A stretch of DNA of 57,373 bases from an uncultured Atribacterota bacterium (lineage in GTDB: Bacteria > Atribacterota > Phoenicimicrobiia > Phoenicimicrobiales > Stramentimicrobiaceae). Made by a program: the position numbers and the translations under genes. This document shows positions 4,222 through 23,305 of this stretch, piece after piece; position 1 is the stretch's first letter, and each line of letters opens with the position of its first letter. The notes under the pieces were generated by a model. That model saw nothing but the letters and a program-made list of their open reading frames with translations. It ran no database searches and was not told the origin of the DNA. The stretch is taken from positions 1 to 57,373 of the forward strand of contig CAZGKY010000001.1 in NCBI GenBank assembly GCA_964525625.1. The letters are read 5' to 3'.

Positions 4222-5223
4222 TTATTTTACTAATAGCTCAGCAATTTGAACTGCATTTAGGGCAGCTCCTTTTCTGAGATTATCAGAAACGATCCATATT
4301 ACTAATCCTGGATGGAAGACCAGGTCTTTTCTTATACGCCCGACAAATACCTCATCTCTTCCTTCTGTCATTAAAGGAAATGGATAAAGAGATTTCTCAG
4401 GCTGATCAATTACCTTAAGCCCAGGGGAATTTGCTAATAATTTTCTGGCCTGCTCAGGAGTTATTTCTTTTTTTGTTTCTATATGCACATCTTCAGCATG
4501 AGATCGCAAAACAGGAACTCTTACTGTCGTTGCTGAAACATTAATATGATCATCATGAAGAATCTTTCTGGTTTCCTTAAGCATCTTTATCTCTTCTGAG
4601 GAGTAACCCTGTTCGTCAAAAGAACCAATATGAGGTAGTACATTAAAGGCAATTTGATAAGGATATACATTAATATTGATATATTTTTCTTCTAAAGTTG
4701 CTTCTGTTTGTTCTTTTAACTCCTCCAGTGCTTCTTTTCCTGTACCAGAAACTGACTGATAAGTAGAACAGATAACATTTTTGATACCTACCGCATCATA
4801 AATTGGTTTTAAAGCAACTACCATTTGAATAGTAGAGCAATTAGGATTAGCAATAATACCATGGTGTTTTTGAACATCATCCGGATTAACTTCTGGAACA
4901 ACCAGAGGAACTTCAGGGTTCATCCTGTAATATTTACCATTATCTATGACCACTGCTCCAGCTTGAACGGCAAGAGGAGCAAAATATTTACTAACTTCAT
5001 CTCCTCCAGAAAAGAGAGCTATATCAATACTGGTAAATGCTCTATCTTTTAGTTCTTTAACTTTAATTTTTTCACTCTTAAAATGATATTCCTTTCCCTT
5101 TGAACGATGAGAAGCATATAGCAACAGGTTTTTTACCGGGAAATTCCTCTGTTCCAAAACTTTGATCATTTCTTCCCCTACTGCACCTGTAGCACCTACT
5201 ATTGCTATATTATAATATTTCAT
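4222..5223 (-). CDS. asd: Aspartate-semialdehyde dehydrogenase
   Basis: 333 aa. N-terminal IAIVGATGAVG Rossmann motif and active-site NPNCSTIQ. Lies immediately downstream of thrB-lysC. Confidence 0.92.
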   Translation of the reverse strand: MKYYNIAIVGATGAVGEEMIKVLEQRNFPVKNLLLYASHRSKGKEYHFKSEKIKVKELKDRAFTSIDIALFSGGDEVSKYFAPLAVQAGAVVIDNGKYYRMNPEVPLVVPEVNPDDVQKHHGIIANPNCSTIQMVVALKPIYDAVGIKNVICSTYQSVSGTGKEALEELKEQTEATLEEKYININVYPYQIAFNVLPHIGSFDEQGYSSEEIKMLKETRKILHDDHINVSATTVRVPVLRSHAEDVHIETKKEITPEQARKLLANSPGLKVIDQPEKSLYPFPLMTEGRDEVFVGRIRKDLVFHPGLVIWIVSDNLRKGAALNAVQIAELLVK

Positions 5224-5225
5224 TT

Positions 5226-7370
5226 TTATTCTTCCTCCTCTAATTGAAATTCCTGATGTACGGCTCTAACAGCCGTCTCTATATGTTTTCTATGAATCAG
5301 ACAGGATATCCTTGTACCAGAGGTGCTAATCATATCAATATTGATATTATTGCGAGCTAAGGCTTCAAACATGCGTGCGGCAATTTGAGGATCTGAAGTA
5401 ATACCTGCTCCTATTATAGATATCTTAGCAACTTCATTATCAGAAAGTACTTTAGGAGCACCAATATCTATAGCCACTTTCCTGGTTATGCTAAGTGCTT
5501 TTTCTAAATTATCCTGGGCTACGGTAAAAGCAATATCATTGACCTTATTATGTTCTGCGCTTTGAATAATCATGTCAACAATAATCTCCTCTTTAGCTAA
5601 TGCTCTAAACAATTGGGCAGCAATTCCGGGTATATCGGGAACACTTTTGATAATAATTTTACCTACCTTATCCTCGTGAGTAACTGCTCTTACATGAACT
5701 TTTTCTAACATAGGTATCTCCTCCCCTGTTTTAATAATAGTACCTTCGCCATCATGAAAACTTGATTTTACTAATATCTTAACATCATGATTTCGAGCAA
5801 TATCAATTGCTCTATAATATAATACTTTGGCACCTAAGATAGCCATTTCTGACATTTCATCATGTGAAATTTCTTTTATTTTTCTGGCTTCCGGTACTAA
5901 GCGGGGATCAGCAGTAAAAACCCCATCTACATCAGTATAAATTTCACAACGTTCCGCCTTCATTCTGGCAGCCAGAGCAATGGCAGTAGTATCAGAACCA
6001 CCTCTTCCTAAAGTAGTAATGTTCCCTTCATCGTCTATACCCTGAAATCCTGCCACAATTACAATCTTACCTTTCTTTAAAGCATTTTTAATTCGCTGTT
6101 CATTTATGCTATTAATTCTAGCTTTTGTATAAGCACTATTAGTTCTAATTCCAGCCTGAGCACCAGTAAAAGAAATTGCCTCTTTGCCCAGGGCTTGAAT
6201 GGCCATGGTCACCAGAGCAATAGATATTTGCTCTCCAGTGGACAAGAGCATATCCATTTCTCTCTCACTGGGATTTGCTAAAATTTGGCGAGATTTCTTA
6301 ATTAACTCATCTGTCGTCTTACCCATTGCCGAAACTACCACAATCATGCGATTACCTAATCTTGCTTGTTCTACAATTCTTTGTGCCACCATTTTGATCT
6401 TTGGGATATCGGCAAGAGAACTTCCCCCATATTTCTGCACAATAATGGGATAATCCATTCCCCCCTTAACTACTCTTGCCCCATCTAAATCAGGATCCAG
6501 CACTCTCACCTGTCCTTCTATATCCGCTTCTGAAAATGTTTTTTTCATGATTTTAATAATCTCTTTTTCCAACCCCTCTTTTACCAAGGAAATAACTGTA
6601 GGCCCTGAGCCACTCAATGCTACCCCAGCAATACCACTTTTTTGCACCTCGGTAAAAATATTCTTAGCTCCTTTGATAAAAGGGAGGCGAAAGGGTTGAT
6701 GGAGACGGTCCTGCATGGCCTCCGGAATAAGTTCCCATTTCGATTGTTGTAAGGCATTTACCAGTAAGGCAGATTTACTTAGATTATCTACGGCATCCTG
6801 AAGAGAAACCTGTTTGGGTAATACCTTACGCATCTCTTCGGTGCTCAGGGTAAAAGAAGGAATGCCAACTACCGCCCTCAGGTCAGGAGGAACCTCTAAT
6901 TTTACCCATCTAATCTCACCCTTCTGGTCTCTATAAGAAATAGTAAATCCACCAATAAGTGCCGGAACAATATTATCCAGATGCCCTTCTAAGGTAAAAG
7001 CCATCTGTAATATCTCTTCCCTGCTCAAATTTAACTCATAAAGCTGGTTAGCCCCCATGATTCCCCCAATAATAGCAGCAGCACTGCTTCCCAGCCCTCT
7101 AGCTAGGGGTATCTCGTTTTTAATGGTAATTTTTAAACCCCTCTTATTTGAACTTATCTTAGCCTTATCCATAACCAGGCAAGCTGCTCTATAAATTAAG
7201 TTACTGTTATCAGAAGAAAGGGTTTCCACTCCTTCTCCTTCGGCCTGGAAAATAAATCCTTCTTCAATGTGCTCCATTTCTACCTCCAGGTATAAAGACA
7301 AAGCCATTCCTAAGCAATCAAATCCTGAACCCAGGTTGGCTGTAGTCGCTGGTATTCTCACTTTAATCAT
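5226..7370 (-). CDS. Fused homoserine kinase / aspartate kinase (ThrB-LysC in one reading frame)
   Basis: The N-terminal ~305 aa look like GHMP homoserine kinase (PATTANLGSGFDCLG, PLARGLGSSAAA, ends DGARVV). The rest is aspartokinase (IVQKYGGSS...) with two ACT-like repeats. Start moved to ATG 7370 behind AAGGAG; the track ORF starts at 7394. Confidence 0.85.
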   Translation of the reverse strand: MIKVRIPATTANLGSGFDCLGMALSLYLEVEMEHIEEGFIFQAEGEGVETLSSDNSNLIYRAACLVMDKAKISSNKRGLKITIKNEIPLARGLGSSAAAIIGGIMGANQLYELNLSREEILQMAFTLEGHLDNIVPALIGGFTISYRDQKGEIRWVKLEVPPDLRAVVGIPSFTLSTEEMRKVLPKQVSLQDAVDNLSKSALLVNALQQSKWELIPEAMQDRLHQPFRLPFIKGAKNIFTEVQKSGIAGVALSGSGPTVISLVKEGLEKEIIKIMKKTFSEADIEGQVRVLDPDLDGARVVKGGMDYPIIVQKYGGSSLADIPKIKMVAQRIVEQARLGNRMIVVVSAMGKTTDELIKKSRQILANPSEREMDMLLSTGEQISIALVTMAIQALGKEAISFTGAQAGIRTNSAYTKARINSINEQRIKNALKKGKIVIVAGFQGIDDEGNITTLGRGGSDTTAIALAARMKAERCEIYTDVDGVFTADPRLVPEARKIKEISHDEMSEMAILGAKVLYYRAIDIARNHDVKILVKSSFHDGEGTIIKTGEEIPMLEKVHVRAVTHEDKVGKIIIKSVPDIPGIAAQLFRALAKEEIIVDMIIQSAEHNKVNDIAFTVAQDNLEKALSITRKVAIDIGAPKVLSDNEVAKISIIGAGITSDPQIAARMFEALARNNINIDMISTSGTRISCLIHRKHIETAVRAVHQEFQLEEEE

Positions 7371-12176: not shown

Positions 12177-12726
12177 ATAGACACTCACGCCCTTACAGGC
12201 GTGGTGCTCTCAAAATTCAAGCTGTGCTTGTCCTGTATCTTCCTCTTCTTGCATCCGGACGTATGCTTGGATGATTTTCTCGTTGATCCCCACTGTAGAG
12301 ACAAAATAACCTTTCGCCCATATCCCTTTATCGTCCCAGTAGACCTTTTGCAGGAAGGTAAATTTTTCTTTCAGTGCTCTACTGGTATTGGACTTGATAG
12401 TTTCCACCACCTTGCTTACCGCATACTTGGGAGGGATCAACATATACAAATGGATGTGATCAATATCGATGCCAATCTCCAGATATTCCCAGTCTGGATA
12501 GTACTTTCTAATCTCTAGAAGCTTTATCTTCAGATAGTCTTTGACTCCCCTAAGGAGTATCTTCCTTCGGAAACGGGTAATCCAGACGATATGATATTGG
12601 GTCTGGTATACGGTATGGGACGATTTTCTGAGTCTCATATCATTATTATATCAAAGTACGAACGGAAGATACAGGAACATGCTCTCATCCCCACCCTTAC
12701 AGGTGGGGAGTTCCCGCTGGATTAAA
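12177..12726 (-). mobile_element. IS200/IS605-family element (tnpA only), copy 1, intact
   Basis: Subterminal hairpins ccccaccTGTAAGggtgggg (LE) and caccacgccTGTAAGggcgtg (RE) flank tnpA. No inverted repeats, as expected for this family. Confidence 0.85.
12210..12638 (-). CDS. tnpA: IS200/IS605 family Y1 (HUH) transposase TnpA
   Basis: 142 aa with YHIVWITRFRRKIL, the HUH motif DHIHLYM and C-terminal GYFVSTVG. Confidence 0.9.
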   Translation of the reverse strand: MRLRKSSHTVYQTQYHIVWITRFRRKILLRGVKDYLKIKLLEIRKYYPDWEYLEIGIDIDHIHLYMLIPPKYAVSKVVETIKSNTSRALKEKFTFLQKVYWDDKGIWAKGYFVSTVGINEKIIQAYVRMQEEEDTGQAQLEF

Positions 12727-16563: not shown

Positions 16564-17068
16564 ATTCTACACTCCTTAATTTTTATTAATTTGTTTTTTT
16601 TTGTGAAATTTAGAAATTATTTAATAAATATCAAGACATAGTGAACTCTTTCTAATGATATTAAAATATTAATCCAGCGGGAACTCCCCACCTGTAAGGG
16701 TGGGGATGAGAGCATGTTCCTGTATCTTCCGTTCGTACTTTGATATAATAATGATATGAGACTCAGAAAATCGTCCCATACCGTATACCAGACCCAATAT
16801 CATATCGTCTGGATTACCCGTTTCCGAAGGAAGATACTCCTTAGGGGAGTCAAAGACTATCTGAAGATAAAGCTTCTAGAGATTAGAAAGTACTATCCAG
16901 ACTGGGAATATCTGGAGATTGGCATCGATATTGATCACATCCATTTGTATATGTTGATCCCTCCCAAGTATGCGGTAAGCAAGGTGGTGGAAACTATCAA
17001 GTCCAATACCAGTAGAGCACTGAAAGAAAAATTTACCTTCCTGCAAAAGGTCTACTGGGACGGTGGAA

Positions 17069-18463
17069 GAGATACTGTCAAATGTTGTGGATGAATAAAT
17101 TCACATCCTTTGGAACATTAACCGTTATGCCACTTTATCTACCAGCTCTCCATCCCGGAATTCTTTGTTCTCTAAGACCAGTGGAATCATTTGATATCCC
17201 CTAAGCCGCCGCCAGTTCTTTTGGGCCTCCTGGGCCAATTTGAAGACCATACTCAAGGTAGCCTTTCGGGATCCACAGCCTTTGGTCCGTTTGGTTCTCA
17301 ATCGTACCGTGGCAAAGGTAGACTCGATCGGATTGGTGGTCCGAATAGGCATCCAGTGTACGGCCGGAAAATCATAGAAGGTAAACAGATCTTCAGAGTC
17401 TTTACTCAGACATTCGGCTGCTTTGGGATATTTATCACTATAGGAAGCCAGGAAATGATCATAAGCCTGTAATGCTTCTTGTTTTGTTTCAGCCTGATAC
17501 AGCTCATGGATCAGGGATTTGGCCTTGGACTGGATAGCCTTAGGTAGTTTATCTAAGATGTTGGCTGTCTTGTGTACCCAGCAGCGTTGCCGGCGGGTTT
17601 GAGGGAAGACCTCTGCTAGGGCTGCCCAGAAGCCTAAGGCGCCATCACCGATCGCCAGTTTGGGCATCTGCTGTAATCCTCTTTCTTTCAGATCCAGTAG
17701 CATCTCCCGCCAGGCGATCTTGCTTTCCCGATAGCCGTCAGAGAGGGCAATGAGTTCTTTGTTACCCTCAGCATCTGCTCCCATGATGAGGAGGATACAG
17801 GAGCGCTCCTCATCCAGTCGGACCTGGAAATAGATGCCATCTACCCAGAGATAGACATAGTGTTTATGGGATAGATCCCGTTTAACCCATCTTTCATATT
17901 CGGCTTCCCAGCATCTCTTGAGCCGCACGATATTGGCCGGAGAAAGTCCTTTTACCCCTTCTCCTAAGATGGCAGTTAGAGCCTGGGGAAAATCATTGCT
18001 GCTGATGCCCTTCAGGTAAAGATAGGGAATGAGGTTATCCACACTGGGCATTCTACGCAGATACTTGGGCAGGATCGTACTGGTAAAGCGCTTCTGCTTC
18101 CTTCGATCATCGACCCGTGGTTGTCTGATAGGAATAGGACCTATTCCAGAGATAATGGAACGACTAGGATGGTAACCGTTACGCACCACGGTTTTTCTTC
18201 CCAAAGAATCTCTATCTTGCCTATGTGCTTTTATATATTCTTCCACTTCTAATTCCAAAGCCTGCTGTAACATCTTCCGTGCTCCTTCCCTGGCTAGCTG
18301 TTCTAATACCGACCAGGTTTCACTTTTTTCTGGACAAAAGTCCATCTCTTGAGTATACTGACTCATAAGCATATCCCTTTCTCATTTGGAAATATTTTTA
18401 TTGAACATACTTTCCAAAGGATATGCTTTTTTTATCATTCTGTCCACAACTTTTGATTATAAC
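17069..18463 (-). mobile_element. IS256-family insertion sequence with 9-bp target duplication
   Basis: Imperfect IRs GAGATACTGTCAAATGTTGTGGA and GAGTTATAATCAAAAGTTGTGGAC. Direct repeat ACGGTGGAA at 17060-17068 and 18464-18472. Confidence 0.85.
17125..18372 (-). CDS. IS256 family (Mutator-type) transposase
   Basis: 415 aa intact ORF with YLWVDGIYFQVR, RCWVHKTANILDKLPK and TTNPIESTFATVRLRTKRTKG. Confidence 0.9.
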   Translation of the reverse strand: MLMSQYTQEMDFCPEKSETWSVLEQLAREGARKMLQQALELEVEEYIKAHRQDRDSLGRKTVVRNGYHPSRSIISGIGPIPIRQPRVDDRRKQKRFTSTILPKYLRRMPSVDNLIPYLYLKGISSNDFPQALTAILGEGVKGLSPANIVRLKRCWEAEYERWVKRDLSHKHYVYLWVDGIYFQVRLDEERSCILLIMGADAEGNKELIALSDGYRESKIAWREMLLDLKERGLQQMPKLAIGDGALGFWAALAEVFPQTRRQRCWVHKTANILDKLPKAIQSKAKSLIHELYQAETKQEALQAYDHFLASYSDKYPKAAECLSKDSEDLFTFYDFPAVHWMPIRTTNPIESTFATVRLRTKRTKGCGSRKATLSMVFKLAQEAQKNWRRLRGYQMIPLVLENKEFRDGELVDKVA

Positions 18464-18472
18464 TCACGGTGG

Positions 18473-18512
18473 AAATCCCATGGGCAAGCCCATGGTATTC
18501 TGCCCTTCGGGT
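18473..18512. repeat. 46-nt two-hairpin mini-element, copy 1 (first 6 nt at 17063-17068, split by IS256)
   Basis: gtggaa|atCCCATGGGcaagCCCATGGtattctGCCCttcgGGGTta. It is absent from the otherwise collinear tnpA of IS200 copy 1. Confidence 0.6.
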
Positions 18513-18680
18513 TAATAAAGGTATATGGGTGAAAGGTTATTTTGTCTCCACAGTGGGGATCAACGAGAAGATAATCCAAGCATACGTCGCATACGTCCGA
18601 ATGCAAGAAGAGGAGGATACATGACAAGCGGAGCTTGAATTTTGAGAGCACCACGCCTGTAAGGGCGTGGGTGTCTATGT

Positions 18681-18956
18681 GGTCAGACCTCCCTGGGTAA
18701 GAATAATAGCCTTCACCCCATCTACCTGCTACATCTACTACACCATCTTTGGGCAGTATCGGATTTTGTTTTGACTAGCAAACTCATCCAGATGATATAG
18801 CCTCCTATGCAGTTCGTGTTCCTCAGGCCGGGACTTTGCCGCCGACTTCCTTCAGATTCCATCTCACGATGGACACCCTTGTCTTGGGCTAATGGTTGCT
18901 ACTGCCAACCCCATAACAGACTTTCACTGTCAAGTGATTACTCACGCCGGGCGCAA
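18681..18956 (-). mobile_element. 5' fragment (domain I) of a second group IIC intron copy, truncated by IS200 copy 2
   Basis: The minus strand starts UUGCGCCCGGCGUGAG and contains CAAGGGUGUCC...AUGGAAUCUGAAGGAAG...CUGAGGAACACGAAC...GGAUGAGUUUGC...CUUACCCAGGGAGGUCUGAC. These blocks match the O. iheyensis IIC intron as I recall it. Confidence 0.7.
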
Positions 18957-18998
18957 TCGAGTAGGAGGTAGATGATTAATTCATCTACCGTCCTCTCA

Positions 18999-20839
18999 GT
19001 CGAGTAGCACAGTGCAATTTCACCTCTATGCTCTCACGGAACCGTACGTGAACCTCTCAATTCATACGGCTCTTATCATTCTACCTTATGGTAATATCCC
19101 AAGAGACCAATGTAAAAACATAGCGGGCTCTCTTTGGGCAAGTTTCCTTAACCACTCACTAGCTCTACGTTGATGATTCTTGAAACGCTTGTATTTACAC
19201 ATTGCCCATTTGATCAATCTGCGGTTGACCCAATCCATCGTATATCTGACAGCAGAAAAATTAAATCTTCCAAAGTAGTTCAGCCATCCCCTGATCAGGG
19301 GGCTTAATAATTCCGCCAGCATTTCAATTTTGCATCCTGTCCTAAGATGTATGTTCAAAGCTTTCAGTTTATCCCGAAAGGCTTTCGCTGATTTCCTGCT
19401 TACCGAGGCTAAGAAGTTGAATTGCAGTCTACCCAATCTATCCTTTATGAATATTCTTTTGAATGTGTATCCCAGAAAATCAAACTCCGTATGGGGATAA
19501 TTTTCTGTTCTATCTTTATCCTTACAGTAGATTATCTTGGTCTTTTGGGGATGTAATTCCAGCTTACATTCTGTTAATCTCACCTTCAATGCTGCCAGAA
19601 TTTCTAGCGCCCTTTGTTCAGATATACAGTGTATGATGGCATCATCTGCATACCTCTCAAAGGGAGCATCGGGATAATTCCTGGTTATCCATCTGTCAAA
19701 GGCATAGTGCATAAACAAGTTGGCCAGTATTGGACTTACGACACCGCCCTGAGGAGTACCACTTTTCCTTGCTATTACTTCCTTCGTTTCGGTAATGAAT
19801 GGTGTTTTCAGCCATCTTTCGATATAGAGAATGATCCACGACTGTTGGATATGCTTCCTTACCGCCCTCATCAGCAGTTCATGGTCAATGTGGTCAAATA
19901 GACCCTTAATGTCCAATTCAATCACATAGTCATACCTCCAGCATCTTCTTCTGGCTTGACCTATGGCATCCAATGCTGATTTGTGAGGTCTATAGCCATA
20001 GGAGTCTTGATGGAAGATAGGCTCAATCAGGGGTTCAAGGTATAGATTGACCACCATTTGCGCAACCCTGTCACTGACTGTGGGTATCCCTAACATCCTA
20101 GTTCCTCCTGATTTCTTTGGTATCTGGACTGCTTTTACCGGTGGAGGGAAGTAACTTCCCGAGCTCATTCTGTTCCAGATTTTATACAGGTTTCCTTTCA
20201 GGTTCTGCTCAAATTCTTCTAAATCCTGTCCATCAACTCCACAACTTCCTCTGTTTGCTTTTACCTTTTGATAAGCAGTCATGACTACTTGCTTAGAAAT
20301 TTCATAAGGTTTGCTGTCTTTCATCGGTTCCTCCTGTCTTTTGACAGTTGTCTTTTGAATCCAGCCAAATGATACAATCCCTTTGCTCGGTTGTCATTAC
20401 GGCAACTTCTTCGCTACTACGGATTGTTCCGCCCCTGTACTATACCTCGCTATTTCGGCCTCGCCTTTCTGTGACTTGCGCCTTTTCGCTTATCATTACA
20501 ATACAGGTTCCTGTGTTTCGCAATAGAGCCTGTCGTACGCTCATGCCGTCTTCATACCGGTTGCCAAGTAGACAGCGATCAGGTTTACCTCTACTCTTAT
20601 CCTTAACCAGTGGTGAGAGTTAAGTTTTGACAACATTTTACGTTATCGATACTTCCTAGACGGTTCACTTTCGTTCATCTTCGTACAACTTACATGACTA
20701 TTTTATGAATAGCCTTTTCCTTAATCGCTCACTACCATGCCTCTTAGGCACAGCAGCATTAAGGTTGTTTGGTGAGTTTGCCTGTACAATCCTCATCGAA
20801 GGGCCTTCCTTTATCTCTCTTGCAACTTGCACAGCACAC
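18999..20839 (-). mobile_element. RT-encoding group II intron (inner intron B)
   Basis: 5' GUGUG at 20839. DIII-like ...CCGUAGUAGCGAAGAAG.... RT ORF in domain IV. Domain V GAGCCGUAUGAAUUGAGAGGUUCACGUACGGUUC (19039-19072). DVI has a bulged A, and the intron ends ...CUACUCGAC at 18999. Confidence 0.75.
19086..20324 (-). CDS. Group II intron reverse transcriptase/maturase (no endonuclease domain)
   Basis: 412 aa with GVDG, LGIPTVSDRVAQ, GTPQGGVVSPILANL, YADD and a maturase X-like C-terminus (LIRGWLNYFG). GGAGGAA RBS upstream. Confidence 0.92.
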   Translation of the reverse strand: MKDSKPYEISKQVVMTAYQKVKANRGSCGVDGQDLEEFEQNLKGNLYKIWNRMSSGSYFPPPVKAVQIPKKSGGTRMLGIPTVSDRVAQMVVNLYLEPLIEPIFHQDSYGYRPHKSALDAIGQARRRCWRYDYVIELDIKGLFDHIDHELLMRAVRKHIQQSWIILYIERWLKTPFITETKEVIARKSGTPQGGVVSPILANLFMHYAFDRWITRNYPDAPFERYADDAIIHCISEQRALEILAALKVRLTECKLELHPQKTKIIYCKDKDRTENYPHTEFDFLGYTFKRIFIKDRLGRLQFNFLASVSRKSAKAFRDKLKALNIHLRTGCKIEMLAELLSPLIRGWLNYFGRFNFSAVRYTMDWVNRRLIKWAMCKYKRFKNHQRRASEWLRKLAQREPAMFLHWSLGILP

Positions 20840-21488
20840 CACCACCGTACATACCGTTCAGTATACGGCGGTTCGTTAAGAATAAATTACTTGTGCATGT
20901 CATTCTGTAGAATAATAGAATATGCATTTTCACTGTTTCTTCGGTTATCTGACGCCGAAGGAATACTAAGCACTTTTCCAATATCTGAGGCTTCCAGCCT
21001 ACTCTTTTGGAAATAGCCTTCCTAAGAAGTTGTCTGCTTTAATCGTATTTCTCTCGAGTCCTTCAAACTTCCAAAACCTCTTAACGTTCAGCCCTTCAGA
21101 TAGCACTACTTATCATTGAATGCCATCCTACTATGGCCTCTGCTGACTTCTGACAGTTCAGGCACACATCACTGTGTGGGTTGTTGTCAATCCATATTCA
21201 CAACTTACCTGTCAGACCTCCCCGCTTAAGAACAATAACTTTCGTCTCATGTCACCGCTACATTTACACCGTGGAATTCGGGTAGTGTTGGACTTTGTTT
21301 TGTTAGGCAAACTCGTCCATTCCACATATGCCTTCTATGTAGTTTCTGTTCGACGGTGCAAGACTTTGCCTACAGCTTCCTTCAGATTCCACCTCACGGT
21401 GGACACCCTTGCTGTTTGGCTAATGGTTCCCACTACCAAGCCCATAGCAGACTTTCACTGCCAAGTTATTGCCCATGTCGGGCGAACC

Positions 21489-21525
21489 TAGACATCCACC
21501 ACGCCCTTACAGGCGTGGATGTCTA
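21489..21525. repeat. Solo IS200-RE-like extended hairpin abutting the 5' end of intron A
   Basis: tagacatccaccacgcc-cttaca-ggcgtggatgtcta. The core ccacgcc/ggcgtgg and the loop are the same as the RE hairpins of both IS200 copies. Confidence 0.7.
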
Positions 21526-21774
21526 TTAAAACCAGGTCTTTCCCTTACCCAGACTCTGGTAAATCTCTTTGAGAGACTCACCTTTTAGATACCTTCTAAT
21601 TGTCTTTTTTTAACTCTTCTATAATTATATACTGACCTACATATTACTAAGTTCAGTATAGAATATCTAGGCTAATAGTTCGCAATGTGTGTAAACTTTT
21701 TTTCACTAAGGTTCACGATGTATATAAATTTGTTAACTGTTATTTAACAAGATGTTAATTAACAACAGTTCCAA

Positions 21775-21842: not shown

Positions 21843-22076
21843 TTAATCTTCATCTTCCCCATCTTCCAACCTCACACCTTGTAGGTAAATCTCGGTAAGC
21901 TCTGTTTGACCAACTTCGGTCAGTTCCACTTCATCTAAGGTTAACGGCCCACAGTGAGGACACTTAATCTGATTTTCAAACTGAGGCCTTCCCTCGACTA
22001 ACTCAAAGCTTATCTTACCTACCTCAAAGTCAAACACCCTTTTACATTCTTTGCATTTAAAGTTAATAAATGGCAT
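21843..22076 (-). CDS. Small zinc-ribbon protein (FmdB-like) with acidic tail
   Basis: 77 aa. CKEC...CPHCG pair of CxxC motifs and an acidic C-terminus (EDGEDED). Confidence 0.45.
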   Translation of the reverse strand: MPFINFKCKECKRVFDFEVGKISFELVEGRPQFENQIKCPHCGPLTLDEVELTEVGQTELTEIYLQGVRLEDGEDED

Positions 22077-22086
22077 AATATCTCCT

Positions 22087-23305
22087 ATGGAAATTCTATC
22101 ATCTCAACCTAAAATTTCAATAAAGAAAATTTTTAAAGATTACTGGCCAGATTATTTAGCCACTCACCGAGATTCTATCCTGGACTATATCATCATCACC
22201 ATAAAGAAGATGCTTTCCGGTAGAGATCCAGAAAAACTTGGTTATCATAAGTATGCCTGTCCCGAGCATCCCGACCAGTATATAGTTGTTCCACATTCCT
22301 GTAAATCTCGCCTCTTAATACCTGTGGCAGGATTCTTACCGATAAATGGGTAAAAGAGGTTAATTCCCTCTTCCCCGAGCACCCTTTCATCATCTTTGTT
22401 TTACCCTTCCCAGAGAGCTAAGAAAGCTTCTAAAAGATTATAGGTTTTTATTTGACTGTCTTTTTACCGCCTCCAAAGAGACAGTTCTCTCTTTTTGTAA
22501 AGAAAATTTCTTCCGGCAATTGTTTCTTCTCTTCATACCTTGGGAGGAGACCTTAAAGATAATCCTCATATTCATATGCTCATCTCTTCCGGTGGTATTG
22601 ACCTAAAAGTAAGAAGACAGAATAGATGGAAAGATCACTCCTTTTTCCCCTTTAAGATGCTTCATAAAAGAGATAGGTTTCTTTTGGTCAAACATCTTAA
22701 AGAGAAAGTATTACCCACTATCTTAAAGAGCATCCTGAAGAAAAAGGGGAGTTAAAAGTATTTAAAGCCAAACAAGTTTTGGATGCTTTCTGTAACCCTT
22801 TCTTAAAGATAAACTGGTATGTTTATGACTCAACTGACTTAGAGCCAGAAAGGTTTACCGTAGGCTATATTCTTCGCTACGCAAAAAGGCCAGCCACCCT
22901 TAGCTGAATGTAGAATCTGCCAGTATGGAGAAATAAAAGGAAAAGAAGGTAGCTGGGTAACTTTTACTTATAAAGAAAGAGAAGCTTCTGAAGTAAAATA
23001 TACTGTCTTAAGTGGAAAAATTCATTACTCTCCTCATTCAACATATCCTTCCTCCCAATTTTAGGGTAGTGCGTTACGGTGGTCTTTTATCAAGTAGGCT
23101 TAAGGATAGATATGAAAAGATAATCCACAGGCTTTCTAGATGTGAGGCGGAAAGAGAAAAACTTAAAGGGTGGAGAGCGAGACAGATTCTTTTTACCGGA
23201 AAAGACCCCCTAATTTGTCTTACTTGCGGAAATGAGATGAAACTGGTAGAAGTTGCCTTTCTCTCTTCTAAAGAGGGGGAAATGGTAGTTTATGAACCTC
23301 CTTAG
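22087..23305 (+). pseudogene. IS91-family (Y2/HUH rolling-circle) transposase pseudogene, multiply frameshifted
   Basis: Three frames are needed. They carry a zinc-binding-domain-like YACPEHPDQYIVVPHSCKSR, then PHIHMLISSGGIDL, then LPPNFRVVRYGGLLSSRLK...CLTCGNEM. Confidence 0.6.

Follow-up and report, generated by a model that had tools for sequence, protein, structure and literature searches.

Group II introns of class C are defined by a CGC triad in place of AGC in domain V, and their targets combine a stem-loop with 3-4 bp between intron-binding site 1 (IBS1) of the 5' exon and exon-binding site 1 (EBS1) of the intron (PMC1702495). In terminator-homing members such as B.h.I1 of Bacillus halodurans and O.i.I1 of Oceanobacillus iheyensis, EBS2 is absent, a stem-loop replaces IBS2, and the reverse transcriptase (RT) has no endonuclease domain (PMC1702495, PMC4424553). 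A 2015 review names homing sites, terminators and attC sites as the targets of bacterial group II introns (PMC4424553), and in a survey of intron neighbourhoods class C introns appear as terminator-homing elements whose flanks show no biased features (PMC7306698). Herein, a 57,373-nucleotide stretch of DNA from an uncultured Atribacterota bacterium (the window; contig CAZGKY010000001.1 of assembly GCA_964525625.1) was analysed, in which an array of group II introns directly follows a hairpin of the type found at the right end (RE) of IS200-family insertion sequences (IS). An earlier note on this DNA had proposed that the end hairpins of IS200 elements, or of the palindrome-associated elements derived from IS200/IS605 (PATEs), act as landing pads for class C introns. 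This proposal is supported by many independent loci outside the genome and by covariation of EBS1 with IBS1, and sequence comparison makes it very probable that the right-end structure of IS200-family elements is the main homing site of one class C clade, here termed B-type.

Intron junctions at IS200-family right ends

On the minus strand of the window, a 35-nt extended hairpin is separated from the intron by 2 nt, in agreement with the earlier note (Table 1). Folded as DNA, it reaches -13.4 kcal/mol (z = -6.5 against shuffled sequences), and none of 200 shuffles folds as well. The window contains three copies of its 20-nt core, CCACGCCTGTAAGGGCGTGG, where chance would give none: at 21499-21518 (minus strand) and 18651-18670 (plus strand) without mismatch, and at 12185-12204 (minus strand) with one. 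The claim that core and loop resemble those of both IS200 copies is thereby borne out, with 20/20 positions shared with copy 2 and 19/20 with copy 1. The likeness reaches past the stem: the IS200 copies have the tail GTGTCTA and the hairpin at the intron has GATGTCTA, with ..GTCTA in common; near-identity to a bona fide right end thus covers both hairpin sequence and 3' tail.

Two class C introns are involved. The outer intron of the window ("A-type") has no open reading frame (ORF), and the second ("B-type"), present in the window as a 5' fragment, encodes elsewhere a 470-aa RT made up of RVT_1 and GIIM domains only, with no endonuclease domain. Domain V carries the CGC triad in both types (CCGCCGTATACCGAACGGTACGTACGGTGG in B-type), and the covariance model RF02001 gives 153 bits for the A-type intron, 145 bits for the B-type fragment and 155 bits for the B-type intron of the metagenome locus L125, to positions 3-276 of which the fragment is 88% identical. 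The B-type 5' end follows the pattern GTGCGCCYGGCATG..CAGTGAAAGTCTG. Both types also have the 5' exon expected of class C, namely an upstream stem-loop and a short IBS1-EBS1 pairing, here of 3 bp.

Two samples were drawn outside the window. The first was a scan of metagenomes for the RE hairpin followed, after 35-65 nt, by GTGMAAGTC, and was therefore conditioned on the hairpin. It returned 30 loci, 23 of which are class C introns joined to an RE at a fixed place. With a caret marking the junction, B-type joints read ...GGCGTGGG(N)(N)TCTA^GTGCGCC, also found as ...GGCGTGGGNNTCTA^GTGCGCC, and A-type joints read ...TCTAG^GTTCGCC; an IS200 subfamily with a different tip gives ...GAATCGA(T)^GTGCGCC. 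An IS200 tnpA lies upstream in 11 of the 23 loci, most of which also have a left-end hairpin, at about -508. The remaining 12 lack tnpA and are PATEs whose left-end hairpin is placed at about -78. Left-end and right-end hairpins without a transposase gene between them, the hallmark of a PATE, are likewise present at L171-L175. The flanks beyond the left ends of the 23 loci all differ, except for two duplicate pairs, and outside mobile elements these contigs have almost nothing in common with the genome of the window.

The second sample was guided by RT similarity only. Approximately 65 relatives of the L125 B-type RT share at least 80% identity with it, and 11 of them, taken by the length or number of their contigs, gave 14 resolved 5' junctions. 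IS200-family-type end hairpins account for 11 of the 14: five belong to IS200 elements with tnpA (two of these being an IS200 variant with the RE hairpin CCACGGG-N4-CCCGTGG), two to PATEs and four to a mini-element with CCACGGG-N4-CCCGTGG-GTATCTA, while the remaining three junctions lie at unrelated hairpins. The mini-element (..TTAACCCGAAGGGCAGAATA CCAYGGG N4 CCCRTGG..) comprises two hairpins, the second of which, together with its tail, is the RE of the IS200 variant (L155, L176), and a B-type intron directly follows it in L162, L164, L165 and L167. A copy of the mini-element in the window has no intron after it. One identical RT (P0046) stands behind three RE types, namely a PATE (L175), the IS200 variant (L176) and a standard IS200 (L178).

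The tandem A/B junction of the window, TCTAG^GTTCG...CTCGAT^TGCGCC, recurs in L102, L105, L121 and L127, where the IS200 or PATE contexts in front of it differ. In public DNA, the same intron lineage follows such a hairpin in more than 30 other contigs, and among genomes of the same order one more, G050, has an occupied RE. Viral contigs scanned for the intron 5' motif gave no matches. The earlier note would have taken an absence of further introns at this hairpin as evidence against its proposal; outside the source genome, the 23 pattern-found loci and 11 of the 14 RT-guided junctions lie at hairpins of this kind. At one contig end (L112, 1-70, reverse strand), another class C intron (GTGTGCCGGGCATG..) follows a CCCCGCC TGTAAG GGCGGGG hairpin and TTCTTCA; the stem resembles IS200 left-end hairpins.

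Exon pairing is consistent across these sites. The EBS1 loop triplet pairs with the last three exon bases in 24/24 introns, in eight distinct EBS1/IBS1 combinations (CTA/TAG, CTA/TGG, TAG/CTA, GAT/ATC, GAT/GTC, CGA/TTG, GGT/ATC and ATT/AAT), and a class-level permutation matched this score 8 times in 20000. The distance from hairpin end to junction is 2-8 nt at each site, and every 3' exon begins with T or C, which is what a one-base IBS3 would predict. EBS1 also tracks the tip variants of IS200 subfamilies (TAG for TCTA; TTG, ATC or GTC for TCGA and TCGAT). Since the same EBS1, and even the same RT, is found with hairpins that have compensatory stem changes, varied loop lengths and a common tail, the data fit recognition of structure plus IBS1. 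The 1-nt offset between A-type and B-type joints follows from their EBS1 sequences, because B-type (UAG) inserts after ..CTA and A-type (CUA) after ..TAG. The resident B-type intron contributes the G of this TAG, its own first base, so that the B-type intron after every A-type copy starts TGCG and not GTGCG; the G at 21488 in the window can be inferred to have had this origin.

The position of the junctions relative to the transposon was judged from empty IS200 and PATE right ends, which read ...TCTAT in 14/18 cases, ...TCTAA in 3/18 and otherwise in 1/18 before unrelated DNA begins. The introns are placed after TCTA or, in one subfamily, after TCGA or TCGAT. Read against these empty ends, the intron is at the transposon tip or 1 nt inside it. 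Intron orientation equals tnpA orientation in every case, and the intron thus uses the hairpin of the transposon's top strand.

The source genome, a 2.2-Mb metagenome-assembled genome (MAG) of 209 contigs, adds little to these counts. The in-genome tabulation that the earlier note had suggested gave five hairpin copies, too few for statistics, although empty REs do exist among them; no second intact hairpin-intron junction occurs in the 209 contigs, and one further, unrelated intron lies on C140. On C92 (~5130-5650), an IS200 left end and the decayed 5' part of tnpA are fused to the last ~250 nt of a B-type intron (RT C-terminus, domain V, domain VI and ..CTCGAT). Order and orientation are as expected, and an internal deletion has probably erased an IS200-RE::intron junction here.

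Alternatives to right-end homing

Several observations weigh against right-end homing as the rule. Three of the 14 RT-guided junctions lie at unrelated hairpins (L154, L163, L166), as do the junctions of 4 of the 7 lineage members with a readable 5' end in this order (L142, L143, L147, L148). Occupied REs are present in only 2 of 86 genomes of the phylum (the window's genome and G050), and some 20 RE-type hairpins of relatives have no intron; MAG assemblies break at repeats, so that this low occupancy is probably an undercount. Chimeric assembly is a risk for short metagenome contigs that cross a 1.85-kb repeat, and L175 and L176 share a common 3' exon behind differing 5' exons; the 5' junctions themselves fit within a single read length. 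Within L155/L157 and L175/L176 alike the intron is the same, one pair differing in the 5' exon and the other in the 3' exon; either chimeric assembly over the 1.85-kb repeat or recombination between copies would produce such mismatches. The exact tip may be either TCTA^ or TCTAT^, given that most empty REs read TCTAT but occupied sites have 3' exons beginning with T or C. As evidence on the tip, the insertion of IS200 copy 2 into intron B is limited by its target, a variable loop, and by the deletion of the rest of that intron. Finally, the hairpin of the window stands alone, in neither an IS200 nor a PATE: no tnpA and no left-end-type hairpin lies within 800 nt upstream, so that neither a Y1 transposase gene between two end hairpins nor a pair of end hairpins without such a gene is present.

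This last point bears on an explanation that concerns the window only and is compatible with right-end homing. The introns could have arrived at a complete IS200 or PATE that later lost its body by deletion, in which case the hairpin is its remnant and was never a free-standing pad. The chances of this are about even. Hairpins of this type are part of an IS200 or PATE in 23/23 pattern-found loci and in seven RT-guided loci; the sequence upstream is an unrelated IS gene that stops at ~21527-21530 and whose 3' part is absent from the assembly, and the region as a whole is a pile of decayed elements. On the other hand, the 5' arm and flank (AATAGACAT) match neither IS200 (TTTTGAGAGCA) nor PATE (GTGAGYA), they resemble a hairpin that stands free between genes in another genome of this genus (L008, TATAGACAC CCACGCC...GTGTCTA), and the stem extension co-varies (AGACAT/ATGTCT in the window versus AGACAC/GTGTCT in L008). 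The latter (G005, C42, ~2528-2560) is a perfectly paired TATAGACAC CCACGCC TGTAAG GGCGTGG GTGTCTA located ~50 nt past a gene end, with neither an IS200 nor a PATE body. Whether remnant or free-standing, the window hairpin shows the same A/B junction as hairpins that form part of an IS200 or PATE. The earlier note had counted a remnant origin as a refutation; the hairpin may well be a remnant here, but the landing-pad idea stands, because elsewhere the hairpin belongs to an IS200, a PATE or the mini-element.

A second alternative is opportunism, in which any stable hairpin with a 3-nt EBS1 match is accepted and IS200 and PATE ends are merely abundant hairpins ending in CTA, so that target supply alone shapes the pattern. 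The seven lineage members behind unrelated hairpins listed above are what it would predict, and class C introns as a whole recognise structure together with 3-4 bp (PMC1702495). It is nevertheless unlikely, since 11 of 14 RT-guided junctions fall on IS200-family-type hairpins although these are few per genome (five in this one), and since EBS1 changes with the tip from one IS200 subfamily to another. Terminator-like hairpins are expected to be far more numerous per genome. Furthermore, the one outgroup examined, an intron of Kyrpidia spormannii whose RT is 61% identical, sits after an ordinary terminator with a T run. This single case hints that right-end homing is derived within the clade. 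In the same species (L181, ~2380-2400), two related class C introns lie head to tail, 2 nt apart (..CTCGAT GT GTGCGCCC..), after a canonical terminator; with a tandem in the outgroup as well, tandem arrays are general in this RT clade.

It is highly improbable that IS200 or PATE and intron form one composite unit moved by TnpA. The two are adjacent and co-oriented in every case, and IStrons provide a precedent for chimeras of introns with IS200/IS605 elements (PMC4227781). However, the flanks diverge right after the intron 3' end, ...CTCGAT, with no RE-like hairpin there; the same REs occur without the intron and the same introns without the IS; EBS1/IBS1 pairing marks each junction as a product of reverse splicing; and one identical RT is found behind three different RE types. 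Pure chance was considered and rejected.

Architecture and inferred history of the array

The array in the window is read on the minus strand (Table 1), where Rfam group II intron models match 21403-21231 (RF02001), 21183-21091, 20812-20693 and 19074-18999. The RNA of the A-type intron itself consists of 21487-20840 (domains I-V) and 18998-18956 (domain VI), the inner intron lying between the two parts. This A-type copy is ~89-91% identical to the uninterrupted ~690-nt copies in L102, L105, L121 and L127, and A-type structure was read by aligning four metagenome contigs with the same 5' sequence. In the Rfam structure line, the EBS1-bearing loop GC-NNN-NNA of the domain I hairpin is 21308-21301.

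Table 1. Intron array, 5' exon and adjoining mobile elements in window coordinates.
Feature	Position	Strand	Sequence or remark
5'-exon hairpin, IS200 RE type	21490..21524	minus	AGACAT 21524-21519; CCACGCC 21518-21512; loop TGTAAG 21511-21506; GGCGTGG 21505-21499; TGG bulge 21498-21496; ATGTCT 21495-21490; then AG 21489-21488; core 21499-21518
IBS1	21488..21490	minus	TAG, last 3 nt of 5' exon; pairs with EBS1 CUA of outer intron
Outer class C intron, A-type, no ORF	18956..21487	minus	GTTCGCCCG...CTACTCGAT
Putative EBS1 of A-type	21304..21306	minus	CTA; 8-nt terminal loop GCCUAACA of domain I stem-loop GUUU/AAAC
Domain V of outer intron	20842..20871	minus	CGC triad (CCGCCGTATACTGAACGGTATGTACGGTGG), typical of class C
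Inner RT-encoding group II intron	18999..20839	minus	GTGTGCTG...CTACTCGAC; AGC-type domain V; RT ORF 19086-20324
5' fragment of second class C intron, B-type	18682..18955	minus	begins TGCGCCCGG, without its first G; cut off by IS200 copy 2
IS200 copy 1, intact	12177..12726	minus	left-end hairpin CCCCACCtgtaagGGTGGGG; tnpA 12210-12638; RE hairpin 12185-12204; tip ...GTGTCTAT
RE hairpin and tip of IS200 copy 2	18651..18678	plus	GTGTCTAT; after 3' end of IS200 tnpA
5' part (~200 nt) of unrelated IS	21530..21736	minus	first ~30 residues of helix-turn-helix transposase

The description of the intron at the hairpin as class C stands in part. The intron that touches the hairpin does have the CGC domain V, but the locus is a twintron, and the RT gene belongs to the inner intron. 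The latter is inserted 2 nt past the outer domain V, runs GTGTG...CTCGAC and encodes an RT of 412 aa. Its domain V (GAGCCGTATG...CGTACGGTTC) is of the AGC type, which sets it apart from class C. Its RT is only ~32% identical to the B-type RT and, given also its nested position, is not part of the intron in contact with the hairpin. An initial view that relatives follow ordinary terminators was withdrawn, the 80 loci behind it having been found with the RT of 19086-20324 and being relatives of the inner element, not of the hairpin intron. A second candidate exon hairpin at 18956-18998 was likewise rejected, as it is domain VI of the outer intron.

The inner intron also follows a hairpin, namely the outer domain V. 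The nesting seen in the window recurs in L023 and, judged from junction sequence, in L045, L048 and L049. The inner-intron junction (..GTACGGTGGTG^GTGTGC..) is shared by contigs with the labels Bacillota and Lachnospiraceae, so that the domain V of class C introns may itself be a recurrent landing hairpin. In L034/L036 (3011-4850), class C domains I-III follow a classical terminator and are succeeded by an RT 66% identical to the inner RT of the window, an AGC-type domain V/VI and an extra domain VI hairpin of class C type, with no CGC domain V; the arrangement looks like a twintron collapsed by deletion. In addition, L164 (~900-1000) combines an A-type 5' end (TCTAG^GTTCGCCCGACATGGGCAATAACTTGA) with the body, RT and EBS1 of B-type, and is best read as a recombinant of tandem A-type and B-type copies.

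Under right-end homing, the target would be a subterminal hairpin followed ~7 nt later by ...TCTA (TCGA or TCGAT in one IS200 subfamily). The B-type intron, with its endonuclease-free RT, would read the folded hairpin on the transposon top strand, which is the tnpA strand and the one on which TnpA acts, would sense three exon bases (IBS1) through its EBS1 loop, and would reverse-splice at or within 1 nt of the tip. The target would presumably be single-stranded DNA at replication forks, and nascent strands would prime cDNA synthesis, as in class C introns without an endonuclease domain generally.

Applied to the window, this reading suggests an order of five events. A B-type intron would have inserted first, at hairpin-...TCTA^, and an ORF-less A-type intron (EBS1 CUA) would then have inserted after TCTAG, 1 nt into the B-type intron. 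A different, RT-encoding intron would have entered 2 nt after the A-type domain V. Subsequently, IS200 copy 2, with an IS256-type element inside, would have cut off the B-type intron, and a rearrangement would have joined the hairpin to the truncated unrelated IS. A-type appears adapted to the RE + B-type junction, as the junction lies within its IBS1, UAG. This assembly lacks an intact B-type RT and both IS200 REs of the window are empty, which makes the array probably a fossil.

A bolder version of the same idea would make the clade a dedicated hyperparasite of IS200/IS605-family transposons, one that reads the top-strand hairpin and tip bases used by TnpA, integrates exactly at the RE cleavage point, immobilises occupied copies or alters their excision, and is fed by new transposon and PATE copies. 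The ORF-less A-type intron would be a third tier, its EBS1 having evolved to pair solely with the junction that the first intron creates at the transposon end. This remains a tentative and rather doubtful extension.

The surrounding DNA is rich in other mobile elements. The RE hairpin of IS200 copy 1 lies just past the stop codon of its 142-aa Y1_Tnp gene, the RE reading ...GGCGTGAGTGTCTAT. IS200 copy 2 spans ~16669-18678 (plus strand) and carries the nested IS256-type element, whose Mutator-family transposase ORF is at 17125-18372 (minus strand). Neither RE has an intron after it. The unrelated IS upstream of the hairpin stops, as assembled, where the hairpin region starts, at ~21527-21530, and its remainder is found nowhere in the assembly; copies of its 5' end (transposase start about MEKLRKKAIKRYLNGESPKEIYQSLGKGKTWF) occur in several related genomes, frequently where a contig ends. 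A decayed IS91-family transposase occupies 22051-23305 (plus strand), with Zn_Tnp_IS91 and Y2_Tnp fragments in different frames. The interval from 12 to 23.5 kb is thus a mobile-element graveyard, with two IS200 copies, an IS256-type element, an IS91-family remnant and three introns.

Significance and comparison with known systems

If this clade mostly lands on IS200-family right ends, these would form a further natural target class for group II introns. Two unrelated mobile-element families, both reliant on folded single-stranded DNA, would then be coupled, and the transposon and its miniature derivatives would seed safe, multi-copy, horizontally moving homing sites, with the intron seated at the transposase cut point. 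The natural series, comprising two hairpin families with compensatory stems, 4-nt and 6-nt loops and eight EBS1/IBS1 combinations, provides a data set on how class C introns read hairpins. Right-end homing would also account for a pattern seen in annotation, an RT gene just 3' of an IS200 tnpA or of small palindromic repeats, and for the growth of such regions into clusters of tandem and nested introns. Some class C introns have been reported after other inverted repeats, possibly repetitive extragenic palindromic-like sequences in Pseudomonas. A literature search, with subscription literature largely outside its coverage, returned no account of class C introns at IS200/IS605 ends.

With terminator-homing class C introns, the introns described here share a compact CGC-triad ribozyme, a short IBS1-EBS1 pairing, a position a few nucleotides after a DNA hairpin and tandem copies. 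They differ in that the hairpin has no T run and is the subterminal right end of an IS200-family element or PATE, with IBS1 formed by the tip (..TCTA or ..TCGA). Among PATEs, the 12 occupied metagenome sites are ~150-nt elements with a left end and a right end and without tnpA, unlike the window hairpin, which has no left-end partner. The resemblance to IStrons lies in the joining of a self-splicing intron to an IS200/IS605-family element (PMC4227781). However, an IStron contains a group I intron at the left end that is moved with the transposon by TnpA, whereas here the ribozyme is a group II intron at the right end, which would arrive by reverse splicing and not be carried, the flanks diverging directly past its 3' end.

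In the nested and tandem introns of Methanosarcina acetivorans and in bacterial twintrons, as here, introns home repeatedly into introns, independently of any host gene. Recombination between copies also causes deletions in the M. acetivorans arrays (PMC4424553), and L164, with its A/B composition, resembles a product of such recombination. Unlike those arrays, the one described here is anchored by a transposon-end hairpin. A further parallel is found in the introns that home to attC sites (IIC-attC; S.ma.I2 and relatives), a specialised sublineage of class C that exploits a hairpin used by the single-stranded-DNA recombinase of another system: the integron integrase in their case, the Y1 transposase TnpA in this one. 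The target here differs in being a transposon end and not an integron attC site; neither an attC site nor an integron integrase appeared in the gene content read around the finding, although no search was aimed at either. Altogether, homing to IS200-family right ends is rated as a new form of class C hairpin homing, comparable to that of the IIC-attC introns.

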